Shown here: piece after piece, positions 10,395-24,550 of the stretch
Layout: every line of letters begins with the position of its first letter
Numbering within the stretch: position 1 is the stretch's first letter
Virus record (IMG/VR): IMGVR_UViG_3300032315_001187
Location: 1 to 61,125 of that record
Origin: a virus
Lineage: Duplodnaviria; Caudoviricetes
Direction: 5' to 3' (one strand)
DNA length: 61,125 nucleotides
The notes under the pieces: generated by a model
Told to the model about the DNA's origin: nothing
The model's database searches: none
The model's input: the letters and a program-made list of their open reading frames with translations, nothing else
Program-made: the position numbers and the translations under genes

Positions 10395-10613
10395 ATGACT
10401 GGCCTTTCTGCCGTCGCCCAAGCAGTGTGGCGTGCCCATGAACAAGTACTTGGAGAGGAGTGTGTGCTAACAGAAACTGACATGAAGGCACTCGCCGCCG
10501 CCCTTCGCGCTGCTGTAGTGCAAGTAGCTCCTGTGTCAACTAACGCCAGGCAAATGAAGATCCGCGATGAACTTCTGGCTATTGCCAACGAGCTGGAAGG
10601 AATGTCTAATTAG
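10395..10613 (+). CDS. Hypothetical protein, LSPAAQA paralog family
   Basis: LSAVAQAV...AAALRA...IANEL. Confidence 0.7.
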   Translation: MTGLSAVAQAVWRAHEQVLGEECVLTETDMKALAAALRAAVVQVAPVSTNARQMKIRDELLAIANELEGMSN

Positions 10614-10824: not shown

Positions 10825-11454
10825 ATGGATTTGCCATCCAGTAGAAAGGAGGCCCGAAAAGCTGGATCTATAAGGTTTTTCAATGGAATACCTTGTAAAA
10901 AGGGTCACGTCTCACCACGTTACGCAAGAAACTCCAACTGCTGTGAATGCCAAAGAATTGGCAAAAACGAATACAGATCTAAGAATATTGATCGATTGAG
11001 ACAGCAAGACAGAGATTACGCTCGCCTCAATTCCGGCAAAAGATTGGAAACGTCCACCAAGTGGAGGCAGCAGAACCGTGAAAAATGTTTGGCAAATAAT
11101 TCTGCAACCGGCTCCTTTCGTAGAGCGGCTAAAAGGCAGGCGATTCCGCCTTGGTTAACGAAGGAGCAACGTCTCGAAATTGCAAGAATTTATGCGCTTT
11201 CGCGATGGATGACTAGTGCAACTGGTGAAAAATTTCAGGTGGATCATATTTATCCATTGGTTAGCGATTTTGTGTGCGGGCTTCATGTTCCGTCAAACTT
11301 AATAGTGCTTTCCCGGCCTGACAATGCAAGAAAAAATGCATATTGGTGGCCAGGCCAGCTTGACTGTCAAAAGGGAAGGGGTGCCAGTCATGATTGGTGG
11401 AAGCAACTGCAACAATCAGACGAAGTTAAGACTGCCTTTAATTTAGTTGCATGA
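10825..11454 (+). CDS. HNH homing endonuclease
   Basis: N-terminal CKKGH..R...CCEC; VDHIYPL...GLHVPSNL...N..K. Confidence 0.9.
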   Translation: MDLPSSRKEARKAGSIRFFNGIPCKKGHVSPRYARNSNCCECQRIGKNEYRSKNIDRLRQQDRDYARLNSGKRLETSTKWRQQNREKCLANNSATGSFRRAAKRQAIPPWLTKEQRLEIARIYALSRWMTSATGEKFQVDHIYPLVSDFVCGLHVPSNLIVLSRPDNARKNAYWWPGQLDCQKGRGASHDWWKQLQQSDEVKTAFNLVA

Positions 11455-11464
11455 TGCTCAAAGG

Positions 11465-11712
11465 CAAAAGAAAAGGCCCTTGCGGGCCTTTCTTCTGTTA
11501 CCTTCCGATTGTAAATTTCCCCTCCAGCGAAAATCTCCCAAAAATCGCTGCCCAAGGTGTATGGGATCCTTCGCGAGGGGGAAAGGGATCCAAACAGGCA
11601 AACCACGAAGCCCGGTCAATCCTTACGGAGAAACCATCCCTTCCATACCGTCCACCCTCGCGGGCCTTGCGTGGGAACGCAAAGCGAAGCCGAAGCTCCA
11701 GGACCAAGTAAC
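11465..11712 (-). ncRNA. Candidate ~245-nt highly structured ncRNA
   Basis: TGG-TATGAT -10, 5'/3' closing helix, UUCG/GCGA/GUAA-capped stems, GCAA terminator plus U tract. Confidence 0.6.
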
Positions 11713-11847
11713 TTGCAAATCATACCATGCTGCCTGCTGCCCTAGTCACGATGGGAAGAAGTGCGGTTAACCGGCCCTTAAATCGTGCTAGCGTCAAGGT
11801 GCTGGTCAGGCGACTGTCAGCCCAAACTGACATTCTTCTTTTTTCCT

Positions 11848-12207
11848 GTGATCAAAACACTATTTTCCGTTTGCTTTGCTGCCCTCACCTTTGTGCCAGT
11901 GGTCAGTGAAGCTGCTTCATCGCGTCAATGTGGCCAAGCCTCATGGTATGGACCAGGCTTCGAGGGCAGGCGCACTGCTAATGGGGAGCGCTTTAGCCCC
12001 TACGCATTGACCGCTGCTCACCGCTCATTGCCCTTTGGGAGCCGCGTGAGGGTGACCAATCAAGCCAATGGTCGTAGCGTGGTTTTGCGAATCAACGACC
12101 ATGGGCCCGTCTATTCAGATCGCATTATTGATTTGTCCAGAACTGCTTTTGCGGGCATCGCAAGCACTGGACAGGGATTGGCGAGAGTCTGCATCGCTCG
12201 CGCCTAG
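11848..12207 (+). CDS. rlpA: RlpA-family lytic transglycosylase (DPBB domain) with signal peptide
   Basis: GQASWYG...TANGE...TAAHRSLPFG..VRVTN...INDHGP...IIDLS. Confidence 0.9.
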   Translation: MIKTLFSVCFAALTFVPVVSEAASSRQCGQASWYGPGFEGRRTANGERFSPYALTAAHRSLPFGSRVRVTNQANGRSVVLRINDHGPVYSDRIIDLSRTAFAGIASTGQGLARVCIARA

Positions 12208-12233
12208 TGGTACGATGGTTTCGGAAAGTGCTA

Positions 12234-12267
12234 AGCGTCCTCTCGGCTGAAGGGGGCGCTTTTTTTT
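12234..12267 (+). terminator. Intrinsic terminator
   Basis: AGCGTCCTCT/AGGGGGCGCT stem followed by a T run. Confidence 0.75.
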
Positions 12268-12316
12268 GTAAAGAATTGTTACAGCGTTGGCATGGGAGGC
12301 CATTTGGCTGTATTCT
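12265..12316 (+). promoter_or_regulatory. Promoter with HLR1-like (RpaB) element and -10 TATTCT
   Basis: TTTGTAAA-GA-ATTGTTAC, 29 nt before the -10; architecture repeated 7 times. Confidence 0.6.
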
Positions 12317-12359
12317 TCTTTCACGAGGCGCGACCCTCACCACCCTACTCACTACAACC

Positions 12360-12650
12360 ATGTTCAAGCCCCAAACCAAAACCGACATTATCAAGCGCTT
12401 CATCTGCGACGCAGGCAGCAGCATCATCAGCGTTGAATTCGTCAAGGCCGATGGCAGCATCCGCAAGCTGCAGTTCAACCCCCGCGACACGCAGGAAATT
12501 AAAGGCACTGGCCACGCCCTGAAGAAGCCCAGCATCGTCCGCTGCCGCGACTTTGCAGTGGCTCGTAAAGAAGGCGAGGGCGCATGGCGTTCGTTTGATT
12601 GCGAGCGCGTGGTCAAGATTCAAGCCCACGGCGCCGTCATCTCTTTCTGA
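12360..12650 (+). CDS. WYL_2/DUF2693-like SH3-barrel protein
   Basis: SVEFVKADGSIR...AWRSF motif. Confidence 0.75.
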   Translation: MFKPQTKTDIIKRFICDAGSSIISVEFVKADGSIRKLQFNPRDTQEIKGTGHALKKPSIVRCRDFAVARKEGEGAWRSFDCERVVKIQAHGAVISF

Positions 12651-15987: not shown

Positions 15988-16575
15988 ATGCTCGCTTCTC
16001 TCCATGCCCTGCAGGGCCTCGAGGCCCTCGCTCTCACCGCCGCCCGTATCTGGGCCGCCGCTGGTGAACTGCTAACCGCCGGAGCGATCCTATGGGCCCT
16101 GGATGCCCTCGCCCGATCAATCCGCCTCGCCTATTCAATGGGCCGCACCATGGGCCGCCTTCTCTGGCCCGTCCTCCATGCTCTCGCGGCTGGTGGCCGG
16201 TGGTTCGCCGCCCACATCGACTGGGCAGAGGTGGCCGCCGTGGTGGTTGACTGCTTAAAGGCCCTGGCTGTGCTCTGCTGGCTGGTGGCTGTTGAGGGCC
16301 GCCGCCTCCTTATCTCCGCCTCCGCCGATATGGGCCGCCGTTACTCCGCCGCCCTCGCTCCTTCTCTGCCGGTGGTGGTGGCCTCCGCTCCCTCCGCTCC
16401 CTCCGCTCTGCCCGTTGCCCCTCTGCTGGTGGTGGTGGATCCCTCTCCCCATCCTCTCGCCGTGGTGGCCGCTTCGCTTGAGGCCCTCACTTGTAAGGAA
16501 CTCCGGGCCCTTACCGGCACCCGCCGGAAACTACCCAAGGCCTCGCTGGTGGCCCTCGCCCTCGCCCTCGCTTAA
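15988..16575 (+). CDS. Hydrophobic protein with C-terminal Rho_N/SAP-like helix motif
   Basis: Ala/Leu-rich; LEALTCKELRALTG...KASLV. Confidence 0.65.
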   Translation: MLASLHALQGLEALALTAARIWAAAGELLTAGAILWALDALARSIRLAYSMGRTMGRLLWPVLHALAAGGRWFAAHIDWAEVAAVVVDCLKALAVLCWLVAVEGRRLLISASADMGRRYSAALAPSLPVVVASAPSAPSALPVAPLLVVVDPSPHPLAVVAASLEALTCKELRALTGTRRKLPKASLVALALALA

Positions 16576-16638
16576 TTGTAAAGAATTGTAACGATGGGGG
16601 CCGCCCGTGCTGGTGGCCTCCCTCGCCCGTGCCATGCT
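16575..16638 (+). promoter_or_regulatory. Promoter with a perfect HLR1 element
   Basis: Reverse complement GTTACAAT-TC-TTTACAAT, 41 nt before CATGCT. Confidence 0.6.
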
Positions 16639-16688
16639 CTCCATGCCGGAGCGATCCGGCCCAACCGTCAACCACCGCACCGCTCTTC

Positions 16689-17816
16689 ATGGCCTCCGCC
16701 CTCGCCTCCGCTCCCTCCGCCCTCTCCTCTGCTGATCGTGCCGCCTTTAGGGCCGCTGATGCCCCTGCTAAGGCCCACCTCGCCCGGTTCGGCCTGACGC
16801 TTGAGGGCCTGCTAACCGTGGGGGCCTCCAATGCGAAACTAGCCAAGGGGGCCGCTCAGGCCCGCGCCGTGATTCTGCACCACTTACCGGCCCGCTCCCT
16901 CTCCCAGGCGGTCTATGGTGCCGCCGCCGGCCCTACTGCCCCGCGCTCTCGCATTGATGGTTTGGAGGCCCTCGCCCTCCGGAATGAAATAGGCGGGCTA
17001 GTGGGCTCCCATGATGGGTGCCCGTGGAAGTCGGCAGGCTGTGAAAACGGCTGCCTCGCATGGGCTGGGCACGGTGGCATCAGTAGCACCGTGGCATCCT
17101 GCAGGGCCCGCCGGACCATGGCTTTCATCTACAACCCCGGCGGCTACGCTGTGGCTGTGCTGTGGGCGATTGCCCGCGAATACAAAAAGGCACAAGCCCA
17201 GAGCCTCCCTCTTGCGGTTCGCCTCCGGGGAACGGATGATCTCCCTTGGCACGAGCTCCGATTCACTCTCTACGCTGACGAGGCCCGCGCCATGGCCCAC
17301 CGTTACGGGCTGCCCGTGGTGCCGGGCCTGGGAACCACCATCCCCGAGGCCCTCGCTTTGGTGCCTGGTTTGGAACAATACGAATATTCCAAGGCTCCCC
17401 TAGAGGGCCCCTACGGTCTCAGAGCGCAACGGGCCGCCGGAGTTGATACCACCGCCTCCCTTGCTGCTGATCGCCCTCAAGGCCTCGCCCGTAGCCTTGA
17501 GGCCGTGGCTGCAGGGTTCCGCCTCGCCGTTCCCGCAGGGTTCCCCAAGGGTTCCGCCCTTCCCTCCGCTCTCCTTCTCCGGGCCGATAGCGTCTCGCCC
17601 GTGGTTCGCCTCGCCTGCCTTGATGGTGACGTGACGGATCACCGCTGGGCCGATCCCCAAGGGCCGCAGGGCCTGGTTTGGGATGGCGTGGCTGTGATCC
17701 TGCGGACTAAGCGCTCCGCTGGTGCTGGGGCCGCCTCCAAGGCTTTCAGCCTCTCGCCCGTGGTGGGAGAGTGGCAGGCCCTCGCTGGTGGTGGCCTCGC
17801 CCAGTGGGAGGCCTGA
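16689..17816 (+). CDS. Gp88-family phage protein
   Basis: NAKLAKG, CPWKSAGCENGCL..AG.G, VRLRGTDD, YEYSK, DGDVTDHR motifs. Confidence 0.7.
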   Translation: MASALASAPSALSSADRAAFRAADAPAKAHLARFGLTLEGLLTVGASNAKLAKGAAQARAVILHHLPARSLSQAVYGAAAGPTAPRSRIDGLEALALRNEIGGLVGSHDGCPWKSAGCENGCLAWAGHGGISSTVASCRARRTMAFIYNPGGYAVAVLWAIAREYKKAQAQSLPLAVRLRGTDDLPWHELRFTLYADEARAMAHRYGLPVVPGLGTTIPEALALVPGLEQYEYSKAPLEGPYGLRAQRAAGVDTTASLAADRPQGLARSLEAVAAGFRLAVPAGFPKGSALPSALLLRADSVSPVVRLACLDGDVTDHRWADPQGPQGLVWDGVAVILRTKRSAGAGAASKAFSLSPVVGEWQALAGGGLAQWEA

Positions 17817-17819
17817 GCA

Positions 17820-18059
17820 GTGGGGCCCTCTCGCTTCCATGGCACCCGCCGCATTGTTCGCCTCGCCCTTCTCCGCCCTCCCTCCCATGCTCCGCTGGTG
17901 GGGGCCGCCCGTTATAAGGTCTGGCCCTCCCGCCCCGTGGGCCATCGTGATTCTCGCTCCCTTCTCCTCCGCCTCCCTGGTGGCCGCCTTCTCCGCCTTC
18001 TCTATCGGACTGCCACAACCACGGCCCAGCAGATCCGCCGCCTGGGTCTGGTGGACTGA
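17820..18059 (+). CDS. Hypothetical basic protein (frame uncertain)
   Basis: GTG just after the upstream stop; an alternative frame is also open. Confidence 0.4.
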   Translation: MGPSRFHGTRRIVRLALLRPPSHAPLVGAARYKVWPSRPVGHRDSRSLLLRLPGGRLLRLLYRTATTTAQQIRRLGLVD

Positions 18060-18113
18060 TCGCCTCTCCCAGGGCCCCTCTCCCTCTCCCTCTCCCCTCC
18101 GCTCTCCCTCTCC

Positions 18114-18416
18114 ATGACCTCCCTCTCGGTTCCCTTCTCTCCCCTCGCCTCCCGTGGTTCCGCCCTGCGATCAGTGGGCCTGTCCCCTCACCTTCCGCCG
18201 CCCTCGCCCTACCGCCTACACTCCGCCGCCTCCGCCCATCGCCTCGCCTCTCCCGTGGCTGATCTGCTCGCCCAACGGTGGGCCTCCGTTGTGATCCGCC
18301 TGGGCCCCGATGCGTTCAACGACTGGGCAGATCGGGCCCTCCCTGAGCTGGTGGCCACTGGTGGGGCCTTCGCTACTCTCCGCTGGCTACTAGCAGAGGG
18401 GCCAGCCGATTATTAA
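18114..18416 (+). CDS. Hypothetical protein
   Basis: ccATG after a pyrimidine tract; ends just before the next promoter. Confidence 0.55.
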   Translation: MTSLSVPFSPLASRGSALRSVGLSPHLPPPSPYRLHSAASAHRLASPVADLLAQRWASVVIRLGPDAFNDWADRALPELVATGGAFATLRWLLAEGPADY

Positions 18417-18519
18417 GAAAAGTAACAATGGGGGCGGCTGGTGGTTGACCGCCTCGCCCTGGGGCCCATAATGGTTGCAAGCCCGGAGCGATCCGGGCCG
18501 CCCTCCGCTACTGTCTCCC

Positions 18520-18699
18520 GTGATTGCCTACAACACCCCGACCAAGACTTGGATTGTTACCGCCCCTAACGGCTTTGGCCTAATGGAGCAGATCGGGCAC
18601 GATCACCCCACCGAGAGGGCCGCTCTCGCCGCCCTCGCCCGCCTCCGCCGCCCTCAAGCTGGACGCATTGAGACCGTCACCCGCACTTACAGGGCCTGA
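18520..18699 (+). CDS. Hypothetical protein
   Basis: GTG 18520 after a TTGACC/CATAAT promoter and GCGA hairpin. Confidence 0.6.
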   Translation: MIAYNTPTKTWIVTAPNGFGLMEQIGHDHPTERAALAALARLRRPQAGRIETVTRTYRA

Positions 18700-18761
18700 T
18701 CGCCCAGGGCCCCCATCGGGGCCCTCTCCTTCTCCTTACAATCCCCTCCGCTCTGCTCTCC

Positions 18762-18929
18762 ATGCTCTCCCTCTTTATCCGCCGCCCTTGTTTCGTGGCT
18801 GGTGGCCTCGCTGCCGCCGCTCTCCTCTCCCTCGGTGCCGCCCTCCATGCTCAAGATCGGGCCCTTCTCAAGGCCTGCCTGGCAGGGCCGGAGCCCGCAG
18901 CCTGCCATCTCCGCCTCTATGGGCGGTGA
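18762..18929 (+). CDS. Small membrane/secreted protein (55 aa)
   Basis: MLSLFIRRPCFVAGGLAAAALLSLGAALHAQDRALLKACLAGPEPAACHLRLYGR. Confidence 0.55.
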   Translation: MLSLFIRRPCFVAGGLAAAALLSLGAALHAQDRALLKACLAGPEPAACHLRLYGR

Positions 18930-19044
18930 TGGCCCTAGGGCCCCCCATGGGCCCTCTCCTCTCCTCTGCAGTCACTAGGCCTTAGGGCCGCCCGCCAACA
19001 CCGTCACAGCTCCGCCTAGGGGCCGTAGGCTGTCTTCGTTATTC

Positions 19045-19073
19045 AAGGCCTCCCGTAGTGGGGGCCTTTCTTT
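19045..19073 (+). terminator. Intrinsic terminator
   Basis: AAGGCCTCCC/GGGGGCCTTT then CTTT. Confidence 0.7.
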
Positions 19074-19146
19074 ATGCTTGGCAAGGGGGATAATCTTTAA
19101 ACCCGACCCCTGCGGTAGGGAATAAATAGCGCCTAACAGTAGGCAT

Positions 19147-19173
19147 AAAGAAAGGGGCCCCGATTAGGGCCCC
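19147..19173 (-). terminator. Intrinsic terminator
   Basis: GGGGCCC/GGGCCCC stem with a U tract on the minus strand, after 19185..19325. Confidence 0.7.
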
Positions 19174-19184
19174 ATTGTTGTTAG

Positions 19185-19325
19185 TTACTCGTCGTCTAGT
19201 TTGGTTAATTTATTGAGTAGAATGTCGCATCGTTTGAGTGTGTCTTGAATGTCGCGGTTGAGTTCATCATCCCGCTGTTTCAATTCATCTAACATAGCGG
19301 CAAACGTGTCAGCTATAACGCCCAT
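19185..19325 (-). CDS. Small coiled-coil protein (46 aa)
   Basis: MGVIADTFAAMLDELKQRDDELNRD...; has its own terminator. Confidence 0.6.
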   Translation of the reverse strand: MGVIADTFAAMLDELKQRDDELNRDIQDTLKRCDILLNKLTKLDDE

Positions 19326-19684
19326 AGTGATTGTGGGGTAGTTTGAATAACGAACTGGTCGCCCAGTCCGCACCCCATTTTACACTAACTGCGCACAGTG
19401 TCAAGTTAACTTAACAACACTTAACATAAGATATCCTGATCGTTCCCATAAGCAATCCTTATCTGATCGTGATCCGTATCCGTATGGAGCAGTAACCCGG
19501 ATCCGTATCCGCATCCAGAGGGGCCTATCCCCCAAAAAATGCGACACCATTTTTCATCCGGTTTTTACCCTTTTTTCTCGCACGTCCGTATATTTACCAA
19601 CGTGTTCGTAATTGTCACCAATTGCGCGTAAAGCTAGTCGCGGCTGCGCGAACGGTCGAGCATGGACGATGGGAAGTGAGCGCA

Positions 19685-20200
19685 TTAAAACTCTAATGAT
19701 CTAACAATTGCTTCGCCCACTGCTTTTGTTACAAGCTTTAGTTCCTCGTGCGTGGCATTATTTTTAATTGTATTTGCTTTATAACTAATAATCCATACAT
19801 TGCCTTTAATGTAACCTTTCGTGGGATCTATGCGATCCAATGAGGGGCTGTTAGCAATCACGCCCTTTCCCTGCAAAGTTGACCACTCAAGAGGAATTCC
19901 CAATACTGGACAACGCGCGACTATAAGGGAGCGCACGTATTCCCCGTCAATATTAAATTCCAAGTGTTTTCTTTTTGCTCTATTTCTAGCGTCGCTTACC
20001 ATCGCACTCGTCTGAATTCTTACTGGATTTGCTTTGACGTATTTATTTTTTCTCTTGTGTTCACATTCTTTACAATAAGACCGAAGACCATCTTTCGCCC
20101 GTGAGCGCTTATAAAAAGCTGTCAATGGCAACTCTTCGCCACATTTTCGGCATCGCTTAGTCAGTACAACGTCTCTTAGAGAAGCAGTAATGTCAGGCAT
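19685..20200 (-). CDS. HNH-type endonuclease with N-terminal Zn finger
   Basis: CRKC...CKEC; CPVLG...SLDRID..KGY..GNV......N..K. Confidence 0.85.
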   Translation of the reverse strand: MPDITASLRDVVLTKRCRKCGEELPLTAFYKRSRAKDGLRSYCKECEHKRKNKYVKANPVRIQTSAMVSDARNRAKRKHLEFNIDGEYVRSLIVARCPVLGIPLEWSTLQGKGVIANSPSLDRIDPTKGYIKGNVWIISYKANTIKNNATHEELKLVTKAVGEAIVRSLEF

Positions 20201-24473: not shown

Positions 24474-24550
24474 GGGGCTGCTGGATCTGAAGTGTTGGCA
24501 CACGCTAGGCTCATAGCCTAGAATTCCGGGTTCGATTCCCGGCAGTCCCC
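24474..24550 (+). tRNA. tRNA with CAT anticodon (Met or Ile2), atypical D arm
   Basis: Acceptor GGGGCTG/CAGTCCC, anticodon arm CTAGG-CTCATAG-CCTAG, T arm CCGGG-TTCGATT-CCCGG. Confidence 0.75.

Follow-up and report, generated by a model that had tools for sequence, protein, structure and literature searches.

GOLLD and ROOL are orphan classes of structured noncoding RNA (ncRNA) from phages and metagenomes, several hundred nucleotides (nt) in length. The phi29 pRNA (~120-170 nt), from a Bacillus phage, belongs to small protein-primed podoviruses and works as a folded, protein-bound RNA rather than through base pairing, and the lambda OOP, P22 sar, P4 CI and P1 c4 RNAs (~70-80 nt), each with a promoter of its own and a strong terminator, act by antisense pairing. 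Here we describe an RNA on the minus strand of the IMG/VR viral record IMGVR_UViG_3300032315_001187, the whole of which (61,125 bp, an estimated 85% complete) we call the window and whose positions serve as coordinates throughout. As delimited by covariance models, the RNA occupies 11465-11713 on the minus strand (249 nt, a 217-nt core plus a terminator), with RNA position p at window coordinate 11714-p. A first-pass annotation had proposed an independent functional RNA here, and covariation, a promoter, a terminator and the non-conservation of the overlapping reading frame all argue for that proposal. It appears very nearly certain, judging from the comparison of related sequences, that the locus specifies a noncoding RNA, that selection acts on its fold on the minus strand, and that a conserved extended -10 promoter and an intrinsic terminator bracket it.

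Like GOLLD and ROOL, this is an orphan, phage-borne, multi-helical RNA with a covariation-supported fold and no obligate protein gene. Unlike them, it has a core of just 134-217 nt, matches neither class in Rfam 15 (4227 models), is confined to one cyanosiphovirus lineage and has a clear promoter and terminator. It shares with the phi29 pRNA its phage encoding, its approximate size, the pairing of its ends in a closing helix and a multi-way junction; however, the intermolecular loop pairs of pRNA have no conserved counterpart here, and a phi29-type pRNA was rejected as its identity given the lack of an Rfam match and the virion genes of a siphovirus (portal, tape measure and J-like tail tip genes in Pfam and PHROGs scans of the window). 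The OOP, sar, CI and c4 RNAs resemble it in being short, in having their own promoter and strong terminator, in running opposite to early genes and, probably, in being made by the host polymerase, but the present RNA is two to three times longer, overlaps no gene and conserves its fold far more than any single-stranded seed. Closest in manner of working would be protein-binding phage RNAs such as pRNA, together with the orphan ornate phage RNAs.

Fold, strand and coding potential of the minus-strand RNA

Folded as a single sequence, the minus strand of the window RNA reaches -102.3 kcal/mol (z = -2.53), and 2 of 200 shuffled sequences fold as well. Such a single-sequence fold is moderately unusual and taken alone no more than suggestive; the comparative evidence is decisive. 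Across 61 distinct homologues, 97.7% of 3789 pair cells held standard pairs, compared to 74.0% in column shuffles (none of 500 reached the observed value) and 45-52% when partners were slid by 1-3 columns. Both sides had changed in 61 of the 64 pairs, giving 895 such cells versus 225±16 in the shuffles (0/500 again reaching the observed value), and the window and its two close relatives L002 and L004 already displayed 14-15 pairs changed on both sides when compared among themselves. The fold is strongly conserved although these close relatives share just 70-77% of their letters. Two properties of the counts speak against taking them at face value: the alignments behind the main count were fitted to the model and are biased towards its structure, and the sequences are related, so that the shuffle controls overstate significance and do not yield probabilities. 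The slid-partner controls are the fairer comparison because they keep relatedness, and they still fall far below the observed value. Because model-fitted alignments favour the model, the 61 sequences were realigned with MAFFT alone and folded with RNAalifold, which returned 57 pairs, 91.5% paired, covering helices P1, P2, P3, P5, P6, P7, P8, P9 and P11 as well as the terminator; the length-variable P4 and P10 were not recovered. Both sides had changed in 49 of those 57 pairs, so the check for covariation among homologues that came with the first-pass annotation favoured the RNA on both alignments. A screen of all column pairs for pseudoknots or extra helices returned isolated columns only.

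Watson-Crick covariation by itself is strand-blind, and the region precedes a plus-strand gene for an RlpA-like protein; the plus strand, too, folds below its shuffles (z = -1.88). The same pairs could then belong to a plus-strand structure in the 5' leader of that gene, or to an element of the DNA itself, for instance an origin or packaging site. However, G·U pairs account for 12.3% of pair cells, and read on the opposite strand these would be A·C mismatches, lowering pairing to 85.9% from 97.8% (45 sequences). Cruciforms would not tolerate G·T pairs, the RNA region lies upstream of the promoter-like box and leader hairpin on the RlpA side, and GNRA and UUCG loops read on the minus strand only, as had been remarked of the stable tetraloops from the window alone. 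We place the RNA on the minus strand, the one indicated alike by G·U pairs and GNRA loops and by the promoter and terminator, and regard a plus-strand or DNA element as very improbable.

All strings picked out by the first-pass annotation are present on the minus strand, and most of them fall on helices of the family fold. P1 closes the molecule by joining its ends, GUUACUU (11706-11712) with AGGUAAC (11497-11503), just before the GCAA terminator (11492-11471), as had been noticed; 7/7 of its pairs have changed on both sides and 97.0% of its cells are paired. One nucleotide further on, P2, which had been missed, pairs GUCC (11701-11704) with GGAC (11650-11653). It was found by RNAalifold on 45 sequences, shows 100% of cells paired and 4/4 pairs covarying in the set of 61, and encloses P3, P4 and P5, onto which it opens. 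P3 is the hairpin GGAGC-UUCG-GCUUC (11686-11699, including the previously listed GAGC-UUCG-GCUU at 11698-11687), in which 5/5 pairs covary and the loop varies between UUCG, CUUAAUUG and GAAA. P4 is the hairpin GCUUUGCGU-UCCC-ACGCAAGGC (11664-11685, the source of the earlier UGCGU/ACGCA pairing), with 6/6 modelled pairs covarying and 99.0% of cells paired. The predicted CCC-GCGA-GGG corresponds to P5, a mini-hairpin CC(C)-GCGA-(G)GG (11654-11663) with invariant CC/GG closing pairs and a GNRA loop in 45/45 sequences.

Directly after P2 comes P6, from which the 9-bp P7 and the variable arm P11 branch. P7 pairs GGAAGGGAU (11636-11644) with AUCCCUUUC (11581-11589), a helix within which the anticipated AAGGGAU/AUCCCUU pairing lies (11642-11636 with 11589-11583); 9/9 pairs covary, 98.7% of cells are paired, and the helix also appears in the MAFFT and RNAalifold run. 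It carries a tetraloop arm, P8/P9 (GGU...UCC-GUAA-GGA...ACC, 11614-11635; 3 + 3 pairs, all covarying), whose tip UCC-GUAA-GGA (P9, 11629-11620) had also been recognised, and the hairpin P10 (GGGC-loop-GCCU, 11596-11613; 4/4 pairs covarying). The joiner GUUUGG after P10 (11590-11595) contains two invariant G residues, G161 and G165. P11 (11519-11580, closed by CCCC...GGGG) is the least well paired helix at 87.7%, and in the window it holds a private insertion of 50-51 nt (~11520-11572) that is absent from L002 and L004. Two pairings of the first-pass annotation fared less well: the strings of GUAUGG/CCAUAC (11648-11643 with 11564-11559) and CAGCGA/UCGCUG (11550-11545 with 11531-11526) are present, but both pairings stand outside the family fold, with CCAUAC and the whole of the second pairing lying in the window-private insertion. 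P6 has only 3 pairs in the window by MAFFT/RNAalifold, and the insertion's CCAUAC may locally replace it there. An unpaired AUCGGA (11504-11509), invariant in 45/45 sequences and a feature beyond those first noted, links P6 back to P1, and the terminator stands a few nt beyond. In the model, the consensus branches at 6 points.

About 20 nt are invariant, all at or beside junctions, in the segments G-GUCC-U, CCGNRAGG-GU-GGAC and AUCGGA. In alignment A4 (45 sequences) the invariant columns are G9, G10, U11, C13 and U14; C68, C69, G70, A73, G74, G75, U77, G78 and C81; G161 and G165; and A280-A285. The UCC of P2 could instead pair with the GGA of AUCGGA, an arrangement compatible with all sequences but without changes on both sides, which the GUCC:GGAC pairing does have. 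The window RNA displays the full set of features that define the family, namely P1-P11, the terminator, three invariant elements (GUCC/GGAC, CC-GNRA-GG, AUCGGA) and, upstream, a TGnTAnnnT box.

That box is the extended -10 promoter TGG-TATGAT that had been proposed (11719-11727, minus strand; TG at 11727-11726, hexamer at 11724-11719), for which no -35 element was recognised. In 59/61 homologues the box is kept and ends 4-8 nt short of model position 1; in the remaining two, TG abuts TATGCT. Transcription would start at about 11713/11712. The intrinsic terminator (11465-11492, minus strand, by terminator scan) consists of a 9-bp stem with a GCAA loop (11471-11492) and a U-tract reaching 11465; 13/14 of its pairs have changed on both sides in the family, and the 3' end is U-rich in 61/61. 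We infer expression of the RNA from these conserved signals and the strand-specific pairing alone.

The region also contains open reading frames (ORFs), which raised the reading that it encodes a small protein: a 69-aa ORF at 11498-11707 on the minus strand, and 11447-11770 and 11451-11711 on the plus strand. An ORF of 49 aa in L004 shares the frame of the first and is partly similar to it. However, L002 has no minus-strand ORF of at least 40 aa at the RNA, none of the three window ORFs matches Pfam, and the frame homologous to the 69-aa ORF stops within 5 codons in 34/61 sequences, with the window alone reaching 69 codons; protein-level conservation, which the first-pass annotation had named as a finding that would tell against an RNA, is thus not seen. 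Core lengths fall into all three mod-3 classes (25/18/18), 1-nt indels separate close relatives, and frames remain open across the core in 22/183 cases in the sense direction and 39/183 in the antisense direction. A protein-coding role appears extremely improbable, and a type I toxin mRNA (hok-like, with 5'-3' pairing) was rejected since no conserved frame lies inside the RNA.

Distribution and novelty of the family

Blastn matched the region to none of 50,697 phage records, and exact-pattern scans of viral, metagenome and genome contigs yielded two distinct relatives only, plus chance matches; 16 loci (L019-L021, L023-L028 and L030-L036) were rejected as relatives, being chance pattern matches in coding DNA. 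L002 and L004 were first reached through the RlpA-like gene. A covariance model, R1, was built from the window, L002 and L004 and searched with cmsearch against 77 loci retrieved by way of the second gene downstream of the RNA (12207-12650). It found full-length matches in 57 of them (56-142 bits), all on the strand opposite the 12207-12650 homologue and 0.7-2.5 kb upstream of it. A second model, R2, built mostly from sequences other than the window, gave full-length matches in 76 of 96 related viral loci, comprising the 61 distinct sequences analysed above. The window RNA itself scores 205.7 bits against R1 and 129.9 bits (E 2.9e-39, full model length) against R2.

Scans of 50 whole records related through the replication ATPase returned 18 strong matches (at least 62 bits), and exactly one strong copy was present in each of the 5/5 records that are at least 90% complete. 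Three larger records without a match (G039, G040 and G050) appear from their coordinates to be fragments that end before the expected position of the RNA. The closest isolate is phage S-CBS4 (host Synechococcus sp. CB0101), with 58% identity in its ATPase across 98% of the query. Its single R2 match (NC_016766.1, 64499-64728, minus strand; 118 bits, E 2e-36) sits within a 416-nt unannotated stretch between gp092 (minus strand) and gp093, a 'lipoprotein precursor' (plus strand). Because S-CBS4 carries the RNA, the host group is the picocyanobacteria, and a laboratory system is at hand. The whole records of S-CRES2 and B23 contain no R2 match (0/2). These RNAs form a well-supported and previously uncatalogued family, present at one copy per genome in S-CBS4-like siphoviruses of picocyanobacteria. 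The most divergent RNAs, at L186 (1501-1739, minus strand) and L187, have GCUC:GAGC as P2, no RlpA-like neighbour and a different, 201-aa ORF after them.

Searched at gathering thresholds over the whole window, Rfam 15 returned only an abiF motif and a tRNA, both elsewhere. Within 11300-11900 at E<=10 it gave three matches, two at the level of chance and one, to ctRNA_p42d, terminator-like and scoring 26.2 bits where the threshold is 50; eight diverse family members searched at E<=1 gave nothing on the RNA body, in line with the first-pass annotation, which had not recognised the family. The family is absent from Rfam 15; 'new' refers here to the family. In the portions covered of the literature on S-CBS4, and on cyanophages and ncRNA, the RNA is not described. 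Closest in the literature is the screen of Fremin, Bhatt and Kyrpides (2023; PMC10690425), who predicted candidate structured RNAs (csRNAs) from IMG/VR intergenic regions by covariation, the same data source and type of evidence as used here. They report thousands of unnamed motifs, terminators included, with IMG/VR motifs of 29-151 nt (mean 67 nt). Since those motifs do not exceed 151 nt, none can be the whole RNA, and pieces of it, P7-P10 or the terminator for instance, could be represented there.

Several known RNAs were tried as identities and rejected. The consensus is multi-branched and not rod-like, as 6S RNA would be, and has no Rfam match. Y RNA/YrlA was set aside with neither a PF05731 match in the window nor an Rfam match, and HEARO or another HNH-associated RNA with no Rfam match and an adjacent HNH-like ORF that is private to the window. 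Retrons are defined by terminal inverted repeats a1/a2 and a conserved G just after the 5' repeat, and the likeness here is at the surface only (P1 pairs the ends, and G9 after P1 is invariant); a retron msr-msd RNA was rejected, as the window record, 85% complete, has no PF00078 match.

The invariant core also invites a catalytic reading. Many small ribozymes are phage-borne, and invariant unpaired nucleotides at multi-helix junctions (G9, U14, the GU and AUCGGA) would suit a self-cleaving or otherwise reactive RNA. However, no Rfam 15 ribozyme family matches, no pseudoknot was detected, and the RNA's own promoter and terminator point to a discrete product rather than a processing site, making a ribozyme quite improbable.

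Genomic setting and candidate modes of action

The RNA gene lies in a ~330-nt gap that separates two plus-strand genes, HNH-like and RlpA-like, and is the sole minus-strand unit within a plus-strand gene block. Such a position could mean that the act of transcription is what matters, by collision with or occlusion of the early operon or by antisense pairing to its read-through, with a bidirectional terminator separating off the RlpA-like unit. The window terminator does read as a terminator on both strands, its mirror image being listed for the plus strand by the scan, and the RNA promoter stands back-to-back with a TGnTAnnnT-like box on the RlpA side (by eye). Yet antisense action or insulation needs no multi-helix fold, whereas 12/12 core helices are kept here, 11 of them with changes on both sides. 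In addition, the RNA overlaps no annotated ORF, the HNH-like ORF of the window ends at 11454 compared to an RNA end at about 11465, the nearest upstream gene in L002 ends 147 nt from the RNA 3' end, and the plus-strand reading of the L002 terminator has a poor T-tract (by eye). We consider this explanation improbable.

More weight belongs to what lies past the terminator. In 40/62 loci (34/45 + 6/17) a co-oriented ORF begins 17-86 nt beyond it, which is the layout of a cis-acting leader and a point against a stand-alone gene. In 34/45 + 4/17 loci this ORF belongs to a small family (50-66 aa) that includes gp092 of S-CBS4, and L186 and L187 have their different 201-aa ORF; in 6 + 6 loci the gp092-like ORF is inverted. 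The principal rival is a riboswitch-like or protein-binding leader in which a signal sets termination versus read-through into the small ORF. The closing P1, the invariant junctions and the terminator directly after P1 recall riboswitches and riboswitch-containing trans-acting RNAs. The ~20 invariant junction nucleotides resemble an aptamer core, the 3' strand of P1 lies a few nt from the terminator stem, and UCC, able to pair with either GGAC or the GGA of AUCGGA, could be a switch. However, 22/62 loci, in the window clade and others (12 of them with the ORF inverted), keep all the invariant positions without a co-oriented downstream ORF, the downstream gene is not constant, and no known riboswitch class matches. 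The window, L002, L004, L041 and L053 have neither a co-oriented ORF past the terminator nor a gp092-like homologue; in the window, where the RNA is not the 5' untranslated region of a co-oriented gene, the plus-strand HNH-like gene occupies that place. A terminator is present in every homologue. The terminators are long, G+C-rich and A/U-flanked and look constitutive; alternative pairings of purine and pyrimidine tracts are weak and seen by eye only, and the all-column-pair screen revealed no conserved antiterminator and no covarying alternative helix. The spacer between RNA and ORF varies, and 14/30 distinct spacers include a TAnnnT box of their own. A cis-acting leader is, in sum, an unlikely explanation.

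Side observations on this downstream region are that gp092-like proteins (L063 1861-2028, minus strand, S-CBS4 gp092 and those of 38 other loci) have a conserved acidic and aromatic C-terminal motif, that the inverted gp092-like ORF is sometimes fused to a longer plus-strand protein, and that the spacer before the gp092-like ORF contains a ~15-nt direct repeat in many phages.

We lean towards a stand-alone structured ncRNA gene at 11465-11713, and give an even chance that its product is stable, acts in trans and binds a partner through its invariant junction core. Host RNA polymerase would transcribe it from a -35-independent promoter, against the surrounding early genes, and should suffice because phage factors are not required at an extended -10 box. 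Pairing of the 5' end, together with the terminator hairpin, would stabilise the RNA, which would then act in trans through its folded junction core by binding a specific partner. The likeliest partner would be a host or phage protein, with the RNA serving as a decoy or forming a ribonucleoprotein, or possibly a small ligand. Action through an antisense seed is not expected, and matches to the complement of AUCGGA are not enriched in the window (6 versus 6.4 expected). Partner binding is favoured because conservation describes a three-dimensional core and not a linear seed, because at least four clades keep the RNA with nothing downstream to regulate, and because no catalytic family matches.

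Several observations count against this proposal. Its mechanism is read from anatomy alone. Pfam and PHROGs scans of 46 window ORFs revealed no RNA-binding family, and the window record, at 85% completeness, contains no Ro/TROVE (PF05731) or reverse transcriptase (PF00078) gene, while the control genomes do match. A two-hexamer promoter scan of the window did not list the RNA promoter. The one candidate sequencing run (0.04 share, guessed to be RNA) is uninformative on expression, its contigs covering just the terminator (11466-11501) and part of the neighbouring gene (11800-11905) at less than 90% likeness.

There is a slim chance that the explanation lies outside those set out here. A more speculative extension, which we hold to be possible but on the unlikely side, is that the RNA represents a new class of viral riboregulator: made at the start of infection, it would recognise through its junction pocket a host metabolite or a key host protein (e.g., of the RNA-decay or transcription machinery) and so reprogram the cell or disarm a defence, with the alternative pairings of UCC (GGAC or AUCGGA) as the switch.

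Neighbouring genes and implications for cyanophages

The divergent neighbour of the RNA (11848-12207, plus strand) encodes a secreted RlpA-like DPBB protein (PF03330, 5.8e-25; phrog_7930, 'lipoprotein precursor'), whose start is placed at 11848 from a predicted signal peptide and comparison with L004. An RlpA-like gene is adjacent and divergent to the RNA in 45/45 loci and then in 15/17 further loci including S-CBS4 (60/62), and the two loci without it are the most divergent family members. This fixed back-to-back arrangement suggests shared control or a related task. The association does not hold in reverse: the RNA is absent beside the RlpA-like genes of S-CBP4, S-PM2, S-CREM1, S-CRM01 and S-CBWM1 (0/5 loci match), and the distant RlpA-gene loci L005-L015 have no RNA (whole records 0/5 match). 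Reading by eye, we find the TGnTAnnnT-like box that faces the RlpA-like gene between the RNA promoter and the RlpA-like start (~11783-11847, plus strand), and at the corresponding position in L041-L202. Beyond the box comes a small hairpin with a stem of differing sequence among phages and a loop of the GNRA type (GCGA or GAGA). A terminator-like hairpin is listed at 11815-11832, inside this leader region, and the leader hairpin may be a second small conserved RNA element. A perfect 10-bp palindrome, CGGTTAACCG, lies at 11764-11773 between the divergent promoters and is kept in the window, L002 and L004 only; one exact copy and one 1-mismatch site in the window is the chance level.

On the other side, an HNH/endonuclease-VII-like ORF (10825-11454, plus strand; phrog_26577 and phrog_1035, no Pfam match) abuts the RNA terminator. 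It is an insertion private to the window phage when compared to L002, L004 and the other loci, and in L002 the RNA comes directly after the homologue of the window gene at 10395-10613, with no HNH-like ORF between. The early region of the window also includes genes for a RecA-family/AAA_25 replication ATPase and ribonucleotide reductase. The protein encoded at 12207-12650 (plus strand; phrog_2267, no Pfam match) belongs to a family found in cyanophages both with and without the RNA, and its label as 'WYL_2, Sm-like SH3 beta-barrel' occurs in the S-CRES2 annotation only; it was rejected as an obligate partner because S-CBS4 has the RNA but no tblastn match to the protein.

Elsewhere in the window, the abiF RNA motif (RF03085, 24443-24479, plus strand; 50.7 bits against a threshold of 37) lies 4 nt ahead of the phage's only tRNA gene, a tRNA-Met at 24483-24550 (plus strand), an unusual site for a motif named for abortive infection. 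Positions 16001-20000 have a G+C fraction of 0.57-0.68 and strongly negative GC and AT skew, compared to ~0.47-0.53 G+C in the rest of the record, and the ORF at 16629-17816 gives a weak GP88 match.

Well-supported new folds of ~170 nt with eleven helices and ~20 invariant junction nucleotides are uncommon, and earlier RNA classes of this kind proved to be riboswitches, ribozymes or protein-binding RNAs. The viruses that carry this one are freshwater and estuarine cyanobacterial phages. Much of the primary production in lakes and estuaries is due to their hosts, the picocyanobacteria, whose siphoviruses are poorly understood. The cultured pair of S-CBS4 and Synechococcus sp. CB0101 makes the RNA directly testable. 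The presence of one copy in every near-complete S-CBS4-like genome scanned, together with strong structural selection, suggests that these phages probably need it.

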